64,000 bases of DNA, taken from a virus. Location: positions 1 through 64,000 of the IMG/VR virus record IMGVR_UViG_3300046665_000434; one strand, written 5' to 3'. A program made the translations under genes and the position numbers. Positions within the stretch are counted from its first letter, which is position 1. Every line of letters starts with the position of its first letter. The notes below the pieces were generated by a model. That model ran no database searches. It saw only the letters and a list, made by a program, of their open reading frames with translations, and was not told where the DNA came from. This document shows, piece by piece, positions 33,736-51,710 of the stretch.

Positions 33736-35268
33736 ATGTTAAACGCTGTTGATCAAACGTTCCATGACCTCTATTCCAACATCCTTGAAAATGGCCACTT
33801 CAAAGGTGACCGTACGGCAGTCGGTACGTTGATGCTGCCGGCACAGATGATGCGATTCGATACCAGTAATGGGCAGATTCCGATCCTGTCGACTCGCTAC
33901 GTGCCTACCAAAGCGTTCCGTCGTGAAATGCTCGATCTCTTCGTTGCCGGTACGTCGAGTATCAAGGAACTGCGCGCCAACAAAGTCGGTATCTGGGACA
34001 GCTGGTTTATCAAAGGTACTGATCGGTACGAAGAAGCCGTATTGCACACGGTAACTGAAATGATGGATCTTGCCAAAGAAAAGGTAGGGTGGGCGGAAGT
34101 AACTAAATTGGTCGACCCGCTGGCAGGTAACGGCGAACAGTCCATCAATCGGCCATACCGAGCAATGAAGATCCGTGAAGCTTTGGCCAAAGAATTCGGC
34201 ATCCCTCTTTATAAATCAACCCCAACACCAATCTCGATCCAGCGCCGCCTGGCCCGTGTATCGAAGAATAACCTAGTAGCGTGGGGAGCTATTGCCGCCA
34301 CAATCGACGGCCTGGGCACTCCTGACGTTGAACACACGGTCATCAAACTGGTGGTGTTCAGCCCTACTGAGAAAGTCTTCGGGGAACTTGACTTCCCTGA
34401 GCGCTGGTTGCCGCAGCTGGAGGCAGTGCTCGATCTGCTGAAGATCCCCAAATACGAACTGGTCGATGCCGACATCGGCAAAGGGTCGTACGGTATCCAG
34501 TGGCGGAAGTGGAAGGACACTCAGGTTGTCCGTGCTGACGAGAACCTGATCGACTGGACCGACCGGGGCTACAAGGTTCTCGGCGTGGTCAACAGCCCTG
34601 ATTTGCCGCGTGGTACTGTGGTCGTTGAACGGGAGATCGATCAGCTGCAAAATATGATCGATCAGCTGAGATACGAGCCCGATGACCGCCGCATCATCGT
34701 CAGTGCGTGGAACCCCGGCCGTATCTGGCAAGCTGCACTGCCTCCTTGCCATCTGTACTTCCAGTGCGTCAGCTGGGAACTCAGTACTCGTGCTGAATTC
34801 GAAGAACAAATCAACAAGGCCAATCTGGGTAAAGACTACCTAGTGGCGTTGATGGAGACGGATTACGATCCAGACTCTGACGAAGAATCGGTAGAGTTTG
34901 CGCGCAAGTTCTGCGTAGAACATCAGCTGCCTATCCGCACGATGACCATGTTCGTTGTCCTGCGTTCCAGCGATACTCCCCTCGGCGCCGTCTTCAATGC
35001 AGCCCAGTACGCGTACCTGCAACACATGATCGCTCATGTTACCAACCATGCTACTTCTGAATTGGTAACGGTAGGTGTAGACTCCCACATCTACACGAAC
35101 CAGATCGAGAAGGTCAAGGAACTCCTTACCCGGGAAACCCCAGAAGGTAGCAATCCTCGAGTCGTCTTCAACCGCAAGGTTACTGACATCGATGATTTCA
35201 AACTGGAGGATATCGACATCGTCGATTACTTCCCTGGTCCGAAGCTGGATATTCCGGTAGCCGTGTGA
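33736..35268 (+). CDS. thyA: Thymidylate synthase with large insertions
   Basis: DRTAVGT, YGIQWR, IDQL, RRIIVSAWNP, ALPPCH, RSSD..LG..FN, DSHIY. Confidence 0.95.
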   Translation: MLNAVDQTFHDLYSNILENGHFKGDRTAVGTLMLPAQMMRFDTSNGQIPILSTRYVPTKAFRREMLDLFVAGTSSIKELRANKVGIWDSWFIKGTDRYEEAVLHTVTEMMDLAKEKVGWAEVTKLVDPLAGNGEQSINRPYRAMKIREALAKEFGIPLYKSTPTPISIQRRLARVSKNNLVAWGAIAATIDGLGTPDVEHTVIKLVVFSPTEKVFGELDFPERWLPQLEAVLDLLKIPKYELVDADIGKGSYGIQWRKWKDTQVVRADENLIDWTDRGYKVLGVVNSPDLPRGTVVVEREIDQLQNMIDQLRYEPDDRRIIVSAWNPGRIWQAALPPCHLYFQCVSWELSTRAEFEEQINKANLGKDYLVALMETDYDPDSDEESVEFARKFCVEHQLPIRTMTMFVVLRSSDTPLGAVFNAAQYAYLQHMIAHVTNHATSELVTVGVDSHIYTNQIEKVKELLTRETPEGSNPRVVFNRKVTDIDDFKLEDIDIVDYFPGPKLDIPVAV

Positions 35269-39259: not shown

Positions 39260-40075
39260 ATGACTACAGTCGTATTTGATGGGAAGATTCTGGCAGCCGA
39301 TTCGCGGTGTACTGTTTTTCACAACACTACCGAAGAGGTCTGCACAAACTGTGCGACATCAGCTAACCGTACTATCAAGTCCTACGTGAAACTCCGCGTA
39401 CCGAAGAAGCCGGTGAAGTTCAAAGGCCAGACAGTGGCGGCAGTTACCGGCGCCGGTGCGACTGACTGGACGCACGGTATTCTCCACTGTATCGAGAATG
39501 AACTCGATATCGCAGCAACCCTCACGGCCATGTCGATGTTCGTCGCCAATACGTCCAGACCGCGACTGGTCTTTTCGGGGCGGGTGATGGTGGTTACTGT
39601 AGACGGCGCTTGCTGGCTGCTGGAAACCGAGGGTAATAAACTCAAAGAGACTGAAATCAAGGAGTTCCCGATCTCCATCGGCAGTGGTAGCAAAGCCGCA
39701 ATGACTGCCATCAAGTTCATGGGCCTTTCTCCTGTCGAAGCGGTCATGGTGGCCTCAGACATTGATGAAAGCACCGGCGGCGATGTGTCGTGGATATCGC
39801 TTGACGCTCCTGAGAAATTGGAGACCGTGAAGTTCAAACCTGGTTTCGCTGATAAGTTCAAGAAGGCCAGCAAAACTCCCACTGCCGCCAAGACACCTGC
39901 GGCTACACAGTCATCGGCCCCCAAGCGCTCAAACCCAGCGGCTGCTACCACCGCCAAAGCCCTCGACGCTGTTATCAAACACACCAAGGAGAATGTGAAA
40001 CCGAAGCAACTCGCTAAGAAACCACTTCGCCGCGGTGAAGCTGGACTCAAATCAACGCAGGAGACTAAGAAATAA
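39260..40075 (+). CDS. HslV/proteasome-beta-like Ntn peptidase with basic tail
   Basis: N-terminal MTT, LAADSR, SIGSG, EAV..A..ID.STGG. Confidence 0.8.
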   Translation: MTTVVFDGKILAADSRCTVFHNTTEEVCTNCATSANRTIKSYVKLRVPKKPVKFKGQTVAAVTGAGATDWTHGILHCIENELDIAATLTAMSMFVANTSRPRLVFSGRVMVVTVDGACWLLETEGNKLKETEIKEFPISIGSGSKAAMTAIKFMGLSPVEAVMVASDIDESTGGDVSWISLDAPEKLETVKFKPGFADKFKKASKTPTAAKTPAATQSSAPKRSNPAAATTAKALDAVIKHTKENVKPKQLAKKPLRRGEAGLKSTQETKK

Positions 40076-40776
40076 TGCGCCCATCGCCATTAACGATTCG
40101 TTTCTTGGCCCATGATGACTACGCTTACGAGGTGGTCAGATCGGAAGTCAGTAAGGTCACCTTTGATCCGGAGTTTGCTGAGCGATTCACTATCCAGATT
40201 TATTCTGGCGAGTTGGATCGTTCGATGGTAACTTCTGTCGATGCGGTAGCTTGTCCAGGCAATACGTTCGGCGTTATGTCTGGCGGTTTGGATCTGGCGA
40301 TTGCTGATCTGCTGCCTGGCCTGAGTGAGGGTGTCGCCAAGTCGGTAAGGCTTACGGCTGTCGGCGAACTCAATATCGGCGACTGTCGAGTCATTCCTCC
40401 GGTAGTGTGGGCGAATGAAGAATCCGTCGAGTTTGGTGTCTGTCTACCGATAGTTATCTACGCACCTACTATGCGATACCCTGGGCCGCTGCCGCAGCCT
40501 AACGATACCGCATACGCCGCGATGACGGCCGTACTGAATGCGATTTGGGATTATAACTACCCAACTCGACCTCTGCGCTATCGAGCAACTGGTAAGGACA
40601 TCACCAGTGTACTGATCCCACTGTTCGGCGCAGGTACTGGAATGGTCCCTGTCCGTACTGCCATCAGGCAACAGTTGCTGGCACTCACCAACACAGTGAA
40701 GAAGCCGATCGTTCGAGATGTCCACGAATACGCCAAAGCGCGTAATGACGAAATCGCTGCTACTTGGAGAATCTGA
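40075..40776 (+). CDS. Macrodomain protein (second, different subfamily)
   Basis: DAVACPGNTFGVMSGGLDLAI, YAPTMR, PLFGAGTG. Confidence 0.82.
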   Translation: MRPSPLTIRFLAHDDYAYEVVRSEVSKVTFDPEFAERFTIQIYSGELDRSMVTSVDAVACPGNTFGVMSGGLDLAIADLLPGLSEGVAKSVRLTAVGELNIGDCRVIPPVVWANEESVEFGVCLPIVIYAPTMRYPGPLPQPNDTAYAAMTAVLNAIWDYNYPTRPLRYRATGKDITSVLIPLFGAGTGMVPVRTAIRQQLLALTNTVKKPIVRDVHEYAKARNDEIAATWRI

Positions 40777-48624: not shown

Positions 48625-48915
48625 ATGCAAATCTCCACCGCTGATCTGACCAAACTGAAATCTGACGACGTAGGCACCTTTGCCATCATGGCGCTGCAAA
48701 GCGAAACCACCGCCGTCCTGCTGGGCGAAGGCGATGTGCAAGTTACCGCGACCCTGGATGCTGTGAAAGAAGGCGAAACCCCGGTTATCACCGCTCCTGG
48801 CACCAAGGTCTACTTCAGCGCCGACGGCGTCGTCTTCCAGACCCATGCTCCAAAGTACTCGGCTCCTAAGGCCAAAGCTGCCCAGGGCTCCGTGACGATG
48901 CGTCAACAAGGCTAA
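48625..48915 (+). CDS. Hypothetical protein, likely highly expressed
   Basis: 96 aa, strong codon bias, upstream ACACATTAC variant at 48573, hairpin downstream. Confidence 0.7.
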   Translation: MQISTADLTKLKSDDVGTFAIMALQSETTAVLLGEGDVQVTATLDAVKEGETPVITAPGTKVYFSADGVVFQTHAPKYSAPKAKAAQGSVTMRQQG

Positions 48916-48940: not shown

Positions 48941-48971
48941 ATATAGAGCGGGTCGATGACCCGCTCTATAT
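48941..48971 (+). terminator. Intergenic hairpin
   Basis: ATATAGAGCGGGTC-GAT-GACCCGCTCTATAT plus T-rich tract. Confidence 0.75.
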
Positions 48972-48997: not shown

Positions 48998-49567
48998 ATG
49001 TCGTTGGTTCTCTACCATAATGGCCAATTGGCTGGTGACCGTTTAGGTCGGTTGTTTGCTCACAGTCATCTTGAAACTTGCGAAGACATGCAGAAGATCT
49101 TCGTCAATGATGCCAAGACGATCGCGATCGGTTACTGTGGTAACGCGGTGGATAGCGCATCTATCTTTGCCGTCATGGAAATCCTCAAGATTCGGATGAT
49201 GAGCCGAGAGGCCGAGTTATCAGAAGAAGGGTTCCTAAACGATGCTGAGGTTGATTGGGGGCCGATCAACAAACTGCCGACTTCGATGATTGCCATGACG
49301 CATACCCAGGCCTGGCATTTCGATAATGTCAAGGATAAACAGTTCACCGACATCACCGATGCTCGGGTAGCCATGGGGAATGGGTCGTACATGGGCTACG
49401 TCTGTCTTGCCCATGGCCTTACTCCTCACGATGCGGTGATCGAAGTGAGTAAGCTGTCTACTGACGTAGGTTACGGTGTTGACTCGGTCAAGATGTCAGA
49501 CCTCAAGCCTCTGAACCCTGCGGTCAAGAGAAAGCCTACCCCGCGCCGTAAAGGAACTCAAAAATGA
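48998..49567 (+). CDS. HslV/proteasome-beta-like Ntn-fold protein (Ser at position 1)
   Basis: ATG 48998 after GGAG; MSLVLYHNGQLAGDR, QKIF, AMGNG, GLTPHDAV..VSKL..DVG align with 39260-40075. Confidence 0.68.
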   Translation: MSLVLYHNGQLAGDRLGRLFAHSHLETCEDMQKIFVNDAKTIAIGYCGNAVDSASIFAVMEILKIRMMSREAELSEEGFLNDAEVDWGPINKLPTSMIAMTHTQAWHFDNVKDKQFTDITDARVAMGNGSYMGYVCLAHGLTPHDAVIEVSKLSTDVGYGVDSVKMSDLKPLNPAVKRKPTPRRKGTQK

Positions 49568-50109
49568 GTAATCTCGTACTGATGCAGGATGATCGAATCT
49601 CAATCCCCACTACCCTCATGAAGACCAACGAACTACCAACCCGGATTGCGGTCGATACGTTGATGCTTCCGGCCGGGTTGGTCATTCCGTTGGAGTGGAA
49701 CTACGGCAGTGTTGTGGACTATCTCGAAGGTAACTACAATACCGAATGGCAGGCACGGTCTGTTCCGGCGTTACTTGTTACGCCAAGTGGTAAGCTTTAT
49801 GAGTTCTTCATTGCCGAATCAAGGGAGCCGTTAGGCAACGAGGATTGTATCTATCCGATCACTGCCAGACGGTTGCTGCATGGTAAGGGTACGCGTTACG
49901 CTCGTGCTCAAGATATTAAACATGAAGAGATCGGCACCATGGCTCTTCACCTAACCGGAGACATTGACAAAGCGTTTGCGTTGGCAAAGAAGGTTGAGAC
50001 AAGACTTCAGTGGAGTTACGAAGTCTGGTCCATCGAAGAGATTACGAAGGCCCTGCATGCTAAGGGCTATACCGAAGACAAACCCTGGGGAAGGATGTTT
50101 AAACAATGA
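49564..50109 (+). CDS. Hypothetical protein, possible degenerate Ntn-fold paralog
   Basis: ALLVTPSGKLYEF and MALHLTGDIDKAFALAKKVE echo segments of the HslV-like genes; ATGA overlaps at both ends. Confidence 0.5.
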   Translation: MSNLVLMQDDRISIPTTLMKTNELPTRIAVDTLMLPAGLVIPLEWNYGSVVDYLEGNYNTEWQARSVPALLVTPSGKLYEFFIAESREPLGNEDCIYPITARRLLHGKGTRYARAQDIKHEEIGTMALHLTGDIDKAFALAKKVETRLQWSYEVWSIEEITKALHAKGYTEDKPWGRMFKQ

Positions 50110-51257
50110 GTATCGATACGCTGATCATTGATGAAGGGCGCCACATCACCATCGACTTACTCGACCTGTCCAAACGGATCGATAAAGTTCCTGCCATGGT
50201 CTATCACATTCGGATGACCGCCGATGGTCGCTCGGTTCTGGCGAAGTCTCGTGATAAGTTTGTCGTCCCGAAGAAACGGTTCGGTAAACACGAGCTCTAC
50301 AAGAAAGAGATCCTCGCTCGTTATCTCGAGTGTAAGGACTCCATGGGCGCTCTGTTCAACGGCCTGAAAGGTGCCGGTAAGTCGATGCTTGCAGAAGATC
50401 TCTGCAACGAAGTGATCAAGATGGGTTATCCGATCATCCACATCGACAGCGAACTCCCGCCGAGTTTGATCCGCAAGTACATGAAGTTCATCGGGCCGTG
50501 CGCATTGTACTTCGACGAGTTCGGCAAGTACTACAAAGAAGAGCAGCGTAACGGCATGCTGACCTTCTTCAGCGACACTTCGCACGAGAAGGTTCTGTTC
50601 CTGGTGACCTCGAACACCACCATGGAGTTGAATGACTTCATGATTGATCGACCTAGTCGGTTCCTGTTCCGTATCAACTTCGATGGCGTGGACGCCGAGC
50701 TGATGACTGAGATCATCGAGGACTGGAAGCTTGAGCCAACTATCAGCGAGTATTTGATCGAGTACTGTAAAGTACATCGGGTCTCGTTTGATGTGATCAA
50801 TGCTATCTCCAGGCCAGCAATGGACAGCCGTACGGTCAAGGAGTTCGCCGATAAACTCAAGGTACTCAACGTCCCTCAGGCGATCTTTCCTCGCATCCGT
50901 GTTCGCAGTGTGATTTACAATGGCGAACCTTGGAAGGGCGATTACAAGGTCGATGAAGAGAACGGGAAGCTGTCTATCCAGCTCTTCAAACTGGGTGAAG
51001 TTGAGGCTGAGTATTCCGGCGAAGTCGAATGGCTGACCGCCAAGAAGATCATGCTCTCCACCGGCGTGTACAACGTCGAGTTTGATGCGGCGTTGACTGT
51101 CAAGCTGAACCGGTCATTCGCACCGTACAAGTTTGCCGCGGAACGCGAGTCGCCGGATTATGATTCTGAAGAAAAGGGTCCGCGGCGCCGTGGCGGATAC
51201 CTGGGTGACGGACACATGCCACCACCGATGATTTCGCCATTCACTAACGGGGGTTAA
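50106..51257 (+). CDS. AAA+ ATPase (classical AAA clade)
   Basis: Walker A GLKGAGKS, Walker B LYFDE, sensor-1 LVTSN, Arg finger DRPSRF. Confidence 0.9.
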   Translation: MSIDTLIIDEGRHITIDLLDLSKRIDKVPAMVYHIRMTADGRSVLAKSRDKFVVPKKRFGKHELYKKEILARYLECKDSMGALFNGLKGAGKSMLAEDLCNEVIKMGYPIIHIDSELPPSLIRKYMKFIGPCALYFDEFGKYYKEEQRNGMLTFFSDTSHEKVLFLVTSNTTMELNDFMIDRPSRFLFRINFDGVDAELMTEIIEDWKLEPTISEYLIEYCKVHRVSFDVINAISRPAMDSRTVKEFADKLKVLNVPQAIFPRIRVRSVIYNGEPWKGDYKVDEENGKLSIQLFKLGEVEAEYSGEVEWLTAKKIMLSTGVYNVEFDAALTVKLNRSFAPYKFAAERESPDYDSEEKGPRRRGGYLGDGHMPPPMISPFTNGG

Positions 51258-51263
51258 TTGACC

Positions 51264-51656
51264 ATGACCAAATACGTCAAAGGTGACATCATAGTTCACC
51301 GTAAAGGTGGGCGGTACGTCGTCGCCTACACGCCAGACGACGGGTTTCGTCTGGAACACAATAATGAGCCAGCGTATGCCTATCGTCGAGTGACTTCGGC
51401 GGGGGTTGTAAACGATACCTGGTTGCGTGGACAATCGGAAATTGAAGACGAAGCTCGTTTTCGTCATCTGTTCCTTAAAATCAATATCCCGGTGACCAAG
51501 AGTCCTCCCGGCCAGTTCGTTTTCATGACCCTCGATATCCTCGGAGCGTTGAAGCAGGTTCTCGATCCGATCCATATCGGCACTCTGATGGGCGATTTCG
51601 TACCAGCCGACGACGGAGCGAATCTCTCGTTCATGGAGGCTCCTGCTCCGGTGTAA
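51264..51656 (+). CDS. DUF1653-like protein
   Basis: G....HRKGGRYVV...E.AYAYR...WLR...F pattern. Confidence 0.55.
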   Translation: MTKYVKGDIIVHRKGGRYVVAYTPDDGFRLEHNNEPAYAYRRVTSAGVVNDTWLRGQSEIEDEARFRHLFLKINIPVTKSPPGQFVFMTLDILGALKQVLDPIHIGTLMGDFVPADDGANLSFMEAPAPV

Positions 51657-51667
51657 CATAGACGATA

Positions 51668-51710
51668 CCATGGAGGGGCTTGCGCCCCTCCATGGATCTA
51701 CTTTCTTTTT
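51668..51710 (+). terminator. Rho-independent terminator
   Basis: CCATGGAGGGGC-TTGC-GCCCCTCCATGG plus T tract. Confidence 0.8.

Follow-up and report, generated by a model that had tools for sequence, protein, structure and literature searches.

A candidate heteromeric HslV-like peptidase of phiKZ-like jumbo phages, with a neighboring AAA ATPase of uncertain role

Layout of the locus

We analyzed a stretch of 64,000 nucleotides (hereafter the window), i.e. positions 1 to 64,000 of the IMG/VR virus record IMGVR_UViG_3300046665_000434. It belongs to a virus record of 154 kb, the large genes of which match families of phiKZ-like jumbo phages; for example, a 985-amino-acid protein of this genome has ~33% identical homologs in 290 jumbo-phage records, among them phages of Pseudomonas, Erwinia, Xanthomonas, and Klebsiella. 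Positions 48998 to 51257 hold three consecutive genes, which encode a putative HslV-fold N-terminal nucleophile (Ntn) peptidase (gene 1), an apparently dead paralog of the same fold (gene 2), and an AAA ATPase (gene 3). On balance, and with part of the evidence coming from predicted structures, we moderately favor the view that the core of this locus is a heteromeric peptidase of phiKZ-like jumbo phages, made of one active and one dead HslV-like subunit, with the ATPase as an uncertain and lineage-specific accessory.

All three genes lie on the plus strand. Gene 1 (48998..49567) encodes 189 amino acids ending in a basic C-terminal tail, gene 2 (49564..50109) encodes 181 amino acids, and gene 3 (50106..51257) encodes 383. 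They are coupled by ATGA start/stop overlaps at 49564-49567 and 50106-50109, and each downstream start (genes 2 and 3) is preceded by its own AAGGA/GAAGGA. Terminator-like hairpins on the same strand form the borders of the operon, upstream at 48941-48971 (14-bp stem, then a T-rich tract) and downstream at 51668-51695 (GC-rich 12-bp stem, then a T-rich tail). These two have the longest stems of the whole hairpin scan; the count of terminator-like sites in that scan is not significant (10 vs 7.3 +/- 3.2 expected). We set the start of gene 1 at 48998, where GGAG lies 9 nt upstream and the protein begins with Met-Ser, because the alternative ATG at 48956, which was rejected, sits within the loop of the upstream hairpin. 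An earlier note on this DNA, made from its letters alone, had described the overlaps, both hairpins, and this start, all of which are found in the sequence as proposed. A blastn search of the operon DNA against phage records returned no match.

The peptidase and its dead paralog

Gene 1 matches PHROG 1040 ("peptidase HslV family") at 8.7e-13 and also PHROG 11389, and its relatives in Erwinia jumbo phages are annotated as "proteasome-like hydrolase" (AH06 gp60) or "peptidase HslV family" (PhiEaH1). An AlphaFold model built from eight homologs (predicted local distance difference test score, pLDDT, 78.5) has HslV as its top Foldseek matches, with E-values of 3.8e-9 to 1e-7. Comparison with Escherichia coli HslV (VIA) gives a Z of 15.6 and a root-mean-square deviation of 2.9 A over 152 aligned residues; the model has helices at the H1-H4 positions, and its residue 2 superposes on Thr1 (chain residue 1) of the E. 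coli protein.

The catalytic set of this family has been described as Thr1/Ser1, Asp17, Lys33, and Gly47 (Fuchs et al. 2021; PMC8665760). Gene 1 presents the corresponding landmarks, i.e. a Met-Ser start without a propeptide, AGD, Lys33, CG, and GNG. Among 13 lineages with 20-41% identity, position 2 is Ser in 9 and Thr in 4, while D14, K33, G48, G127, and G129 are invariant (13/13), the middle residue of the G-x-G being N or T instead of S. The proposal that gene 1 encodes an HslV-like Ntn hydrolase with a Ser nucleophile is therefore upheld both by the best structural match and by the conservation of its residues, and Ser as an N-terminal nucleophile has a precedent in CodW (PMC7468587). Judged from sequence and model, gene 1 very probably encodes an active Ntn peptidase.

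Gene 2 has no match by sequence in Pfam, NCBIfam, or the PDB, and no sequence family is detectable outside phages. It belongs with phrog_8172 (unknown function), and when 1.84 billion representatives are searched in full with HMMER, just 26 relatives are found. The AlphaFold2 model built on these relatives has a pLDDT of 89.4. When this model is compared with 48,161 chains in a structure search independent of Foldseek, every one of the top 16 is a proteasome beta, HslV, Anbu, BPH, or connectase chain (Z 7.7-5.8, 129-140 residues aligned), and other Ntn hydrolases rank after these. Foldseek likewise lists proteasome beta, BPH, and HslV first, although weakly (E 5e-3; BPH probability 0.98). In a viral structure library, the model matches uncharacterized proteins of Erwinia and Ralstonia jumbo phages (TM 0.72-0.85) and, more distantly, phage proteins named proteasome beta or HslV. 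On the strength of this model, gene 2 most likely has the alpha-beta-beta-alpha sandwich of proteasome-family Ntn proteins; the earlier note had assigned this fold by eye, and no other fold emerged from the searches.

The similarity between genes 1 and 2 is hardly visible in their sequences. BLASTP detects none, and hhalign aligns only the GKG/GNG loop and H3/H4, weakly (E 0.034, reported probability 1.5%). Within the gene 2 family of 26 sequences, G38 is the sole invariant position, N22, P42, R103, and G107 are conserved in at least 90%, and a conserved Ser/Thr1, Asp, or Lys was not found. Position 2 varies freely (S/A/K/N/T/R/P), and some members have N-terminal extensions. In the model, a strand at residues 2-8 begins the chain from the outset, and the H1/H2 region is shortened to one short helix (45-54). 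Model and sequences together support gene 2 as a catalytically dead proteasome-fold paralog, which is what had been suspected when it was called degenerate.

Homologs of the two genes are adjacent in 13/13 lineages, i.e. AH06, RAY, PhiEaH1, DT01, and nine metagenomic lineages, and they overlap or abut in nearly all. In DT01, hhalign identifies the gene downstream of the gene 1 homolog as a remote gene 2 (93%, E 2.6e-7). Recovery of the pair loci relied on the full HMMER search and on an alignment of six sequences; an IMG/VR related-locus search using gene 1 and gene 2 as single proteins returned nothing, and a word-index protein search returned 0 and 1 relatives.

The two proteins are also predicted to bind each other, with a complex score of 0.73 vs 0.11 for the best control. 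Three prediction runs agree in 100% of contacts, and the pLDDT of the partner is at least 79. The predicted interface brings residues 129-153 of gene 1 against residues 119-144 of gene 2, which correspond to H3/H4 of both models, and in each protein the H3 segment ranks among the most conserved regions. H3/H4 are also the helices that make the main contacts between the two beta rings (PMC8665760). Because the predicted interface matches this beta-beta' ring contact, gene 2 resembles an inactive partner of the beta type, facing gene 1 across the equator of the rings, or a second ring, rather than an alpha-type cap. The likeness to a proteasome alpha subunit that had been drawn for gene 2 is not supported, since the model begins with a strand, has no apparent N-terminal H0 gate helix, and makes its predicted contact away from the H1/H2 face.

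In most relatives, gene 1 directly follows a gene of 96 amino acids, found in the window at 48625..48915 on the plus strand. Specifically, jackhmmer places it upstream of gene 1 in the metagenomic lineages L004, L007, L009, L012, and L013, in the L005 clade, and in AH06 and PhiEaH1. This gene matches phrog_11059 weakly, and its Atlas model is of low confidence and offers no lead. It is possible that it represents a third member of the core module. Homologs of the 96-amino-acid gene, gene 1, and gene 2 are gp55-57 of phage RAY, and the RAY preprint does not mention them.

Other observations concern gene 1 and its family in the window. The H3-H4 segment of gene 1 (window 49394-49450, residues ~133-151; CLAHGLTPHDAVIEVS) resembles the core of the TAL-effector repeat (LCQAHGLTPEQVVAIAS). 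TAL effectors among the PDB matches of gene 1 are spurious, being summed over multiple repeats via a short CxAHGLTP-like motif in H3/H4, and we take them as chance.

A second, more canonical Thr1 gene of the HslV family lies at 39260-40075 (phrog_1040 at 1.8e-20), so that with genes 1 and 2 the phage has three proteasome-fold genes. It shows a Met-Thr-Thr start, AADSR, GSGS, a CTNC insert, and a Lys/Ala/Pro-rich basic tail of ~75 amino acids, and its relatives among phage records are found only in Pseudomonas phage Noxifer. It is abutted by a gene of 233 amino acids (40075-40776; phrog_2613/14717) that has no Pfam macrodomain match. Both HslV-like proteins thus end in basic tails (window 49510-49564 and 39860-40072), which may serve in nucleic-acid binding or as a targeting signal. 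In the ATPase-linked clade, gene 1 has a long tail; several other relatives have a short one or none.

The AAA ATPase and its neighborhood

Gene 3 is a classical-clade AAA ATPase that matches PF00004 at 6.8e-7, above the cut-off, and phrog_2376 at 1.6e-50. In the PDB, its family profile finds p97/Cdc48 D2 best, followed by NSF, PEX1, and VAT (1e-10 to 1e-6). The motifs read by the earlier note as Walker A/B, sensor 1, and an arginine finger, i.e. GAGKS, FDEF, SN, and DRPSRF, align to the Walker A/B, sensor 1, and second region of homology (SRH) of p97 D2, and the Walker A/B, sensor 1, and SRH arginine residues are invariant in 7 members of the ATPase family. The protein has a single AAA module, with phage-specific regions at the N-terminus (1-70) and C-terminus (~260-383).

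Linkage of the ATPase to the pair is seen in four lineages, one of which has the genes in another order. It is translationally coupled through ATGA in the window genome and abuts gene 2 in L004, where they share a base. In the clade of L005, L021, and L023, and probably also in L007, a gene for a DHH-type phosphoesterase stands between gene 2 and the ATPase, and in DT01 the ATPase is upstream of the pair. Among cultured relatives, Pseudomonas phage DT01 has the ATPase, while the Erwinia phages RAY, AH06, and PhiEaH1 are without it. Several other pair loci were examined over 2.5-4 kb of their downstream flank and show no ATPase there. The three-gene synteny that had been expected is thus seen in part: genes 1 and 2 are adjacent everywhere, but the ATPase is linked only in a subclade and in DT01.

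Several lines of evidence weigh against a role of this ATPase with the pair. Pore loops 1 and 2 are missing throughout the phage ATPase family, the "mwfg" of wild-type p97 and its 12-residue loop 2 appearing as insertions in the profile alignment. The top PDB match of the family is the p97 D2 construct 6g2v, which, from the alignment as printed and general knowledge of p97, we take to lack both pore loops. Gene 3 ends in FTNGG with no HbYX, as the earlier note had pointed out, and C-termini are not conserved across the family. In addition, the pair is retained without any such ATPase in the complete genomes of the Erwinia phages AH06 and PhiEaH1. The reverse is also seen. The virus record of the window encodes a second ATPase paralog of 438 amino acids, outside the window (140246-141562 of the 154-kb record; L025:1747-3063), with no pair in the 3-5 kb of flank examined, and no second pair was found anywhere in the window's own contig. 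The jumbo-clade ATPases of L031-L034 likewise have no pair in the 3-5 kb of flank examined. Finally, the wider ATPase family (PHROG 2376, 357 phage records) is set among nuclease and recombination genes.

An ATPase tree including the protease-linked copies and the second paralog resolves no protease-linked clade; the searches for this paralog in relatives covered fragment records that are 9-30% complete. Because pore loops 1 and 2 are absent, ATP-driven unfolding into the peptidase is doubtful. We consider a functional link of gene 3 to the pair possible but not probable, and its action as a canonical unfoldase unlikely. As such, the idea of an active/inactive ring served by an ATPase has fared unevenly: its two peptidase-fold proteins are predicted to bind, but its ATPase is without both pore loops.

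Gene 4 (51264..51656, plus strand; alternative start TTG at 51258) is a small gene 3' of the ATPase. It had been labeled "DUF1653-like", a label that finds no backing, as gene 4 has no Pfam family at E <= 1 and no PHROG family. In L004, L013, and the L005 clade, its homologs follow the ATPase or lie close to it. The second ATPase paralog has a canonical NRPGRF motif and follows a 957-amino-acid gene; its ortholog in L034 has a similar layout, with the AAA gene after a 958-amino-acid gene and no HslV-like gene nearby. In L031 (1523-3052) and L032 (2481-4010), a 509-amino-acid Peptidase_S8/Pro-kuma_activ (sedolisin-like) gene divergently adjoins the ATPase homolog. The phosphoesterase genes mentioned above are of the DHH/DHHA1 type (L005:4690-5532 and L007:3017-3766), with weak Pfam matches. 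Elsewhere in the window, a thymidylate synthase gene (33736-35268) encodes 510 amino acids against a profile of 335 positions, and the L009 copy has 477, which suggests that the ThyA of jumbo phages carries a large insertion.

Readings of the locus and comparison with known systems

In the mechanism we propose, gene 1 would be the active subunit, whose Ser1 would be exposed by the methionine aminopeptidase of the host and would work with the equivalents of Asp17 and Lys33 in the manner of HslV and beta subunits. Gene 2 would be an old and highly divergent duplicate of the gene 1 fold that has lost the nucleophile, Asp, and Lys, and it would contact gene 1 via H3/H4, the surface that HslV and beta subunits use for ring stacking. 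From this contact surface, the likeliest particle would be a double ring in which active subunits lie opposite dead ones, enclosing a half-active chamber, rather than an alpha-beta stack. The protein encoded upstream (96 amino acids) could be a third component. As gene 3 is missing the loops that thread substrates, it would, in the less probable event that it acts on the pair at all, be a factor for assembly, activation, or delivery rather than a canonical unfoldase.

Other results count against the view of the pair as a heteromeric, HslV-like peptidase. Gene 1 matches no Pfam family (PF00227 included) and no NCBIfam HslV family at E <= 1, so that PHROG 1040 and 11389 are its sole family matches, and when its profile was searched against the PDB by sequence, HslV reached E 0.097. 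The fold match of gene 2 is middling (Z 7.7, Foldseek E 5e-3) and is that of a predicted model. Of 80 solved complexes, 58 reach a complex score of 0.73, as do 2 of 110 mismatched pairs, but the prediction used custom alignments and these calibration counts hold only roughly. The score may also be in part a memory of ring contacts in solved HslV and proteasome structures, and a two-chain prediction is compatible with stacked homomeric rings and mixed rings alike. For the 96-amino-acid gene, the upstream hairpin lies between it and gene 1 in the window.

We weighed this reading against others. One, the idea of the earlier note, would be a full ATP-dependent machine, in which gene 3 forms a dedicated hexameric unfoldase that docks on the gene 1/gene 2 particle and delivers host or defence proteins into it, as HslU does for HslV or PAN/Cdc48 for the 20S. 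The translational coupling of genes 1-3, the same gene order in L004, the presence of the ATPase near the pair in the L005, L021, and L023 clades, and the place of gene 3 in the classical clade that includes the proteasome partners Cdc48 and VAT are all in its favor, and the linkage in DT01, being in another gene order, speaks against mere inherited synteny. However, the whole phage ATPase family is without pore loops 1 and 2, and its best PDB match is a p97 D2 construct that presumably is loop-deleted as well. There is also neither HbYX nor an HslU-like conserved C-terminus, pairs occur without the ATPase in complete genomes, the ATPase occurs without the pair in L031-L034 and as the second paralog of the window genome, and the ATPase tree resolves no protease-linked clade. 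We therefore regard this machine as unlikely.

A less probable explanation still is that gene 2 regulates gene 1, either as a dead mimic that caps or poisons its oligomers and keeps the peptidase silent up to a particular stage or place of infection, or as a transient chaperone of ring assembly. Gene 2 is indeed predicted to sit on the face that would otherwise serve a second active ring, its H1/H2 face is remodeled to the one short helix, and it is strictly co-inherited although all catalytic residues are gone. Against this, the overlapping or abutting genes imply coupled translation, which would favor a stable complex, and H3 is conserved in both proteins as expected for a permanent interface. 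The least probable of the alternatives, and one we regard as improbable, is that gene 1 is not a protease and performs other Ntn chemistry, e.g. as a connectase-like ligase/transpeptidase or as an amidase whose substrate is a small molecule or a modified nucleotide, next to an unrelated ATPase. Connectase has the same fold and appears among the structural matches of gene 2, and the neighbors of the relatives include genes of nucleotide metabolism (DHFR, thymidylate synthase, ribonucleotide reductase, and DHH phosphoesterase). Yet the best matches of gene 1 are to HslV proper, with helices in the H1-H4 positions, connectase has no H1/H2 (PMC8665760), and a partner predicted on the ring-ring surface suits a compartmentalized protease better. 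An active/dead HslV-like peptidase is thus the reading that we retain.

Compared with HslVU (ClpQY, including CodWX of Bacillus subtilis), the phage locus shares the HslV fold of gene 1, a nucleophile exposed by Met removal, the Asp/Lys/Gly set, and an AAA+ gene in the same operon as the peptidase. It differs in that gene 1 is ~12% identical and escapes the Pfam and NCBIfam HslV families, in that gene 3 is a classical AAA protein (PF00004, p97-D2-like) with neither pore loops nor a docking tail and not HslU, which is ClpX-like and has an I domain and a C-terminal docking tail, and in that the dead paralog is obligatory at the phage locus, whereas HslV has none. The 20S proteasome likewise joins active and inactive paralogs in one particle (eukaryotic beta3/4/6/7, and alpha), a combination that is here predicted only, and its beta-beta' ring contact corresponds to the predicted H3/H4 contact; the phage duplication, by contrast, is independent and phage-specific. 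Gene 3 has the Walker A/B and sensor 1 motifs and the two SRH arginines in common with p97/Cdc48 D2, VAT, NSF, and PEX1, but the lack of pore loops 1 and 2 leaves its core ~20 residues shorter, and its family is virus-restricted.

A further published comparison is with the phage-borne proteasome homologs PPH, AAH, and CPH, for which neither an informative set of neighboring genes nor any AAA+ partner ("no co-occurring AAA+ interactors") was reported (PMC8665760). Like gene 1, they are phage-encoded group I proteasome-like proteins with Thr1/Ser1-Asp-Lys. What sets the locus described here apart is a dead paralog inherited strictly together with gene 1, joined in a subclade by a coupled AAA gene. 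By its published description, PPH has ~140 amino acids and is without H2, vs 189 amino acids for gene 1. In jumbo-phage papers, HslV-like genes appear only as annotations.

Phage proteasome homologs have been known from sequence surveys alone, without function, partner, or context (PMC8665760). What this locus adds is the predicted H3/H4 geometry, a conserved neighbor of 96 amino acids, and a partial linkage to an AAA gene whose pore loops are absent. A complete ATPase-driven "phage proteasome" goes beyond these data and is mechanistically doubtful. It is also unlikely, though conceivable, that jumbo phages build their own asymmetric proteasome-like particle, in which a Ser/Thr1-active ring sits on a ring of the dead paralog, possibly with the 96-amino-acid protein, and that in one clade a dedicated classical AAA ATPase lacking the pore loops assists it. 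If true, gene 3 would be the first AAA+ partner for any "new" proteasome homolog and would have a non-threading mechanism; the missing pore loops would be mechanistically unusual if the ATPase works with the peptidase. Similarly, a dead paralog on the ring-ring surface would be an independent viral re-run of the split between active and inactive subunits in the 20S proteasome. With its candidate quaternary structure, this compact operon of three to five genes is a directly testable system.

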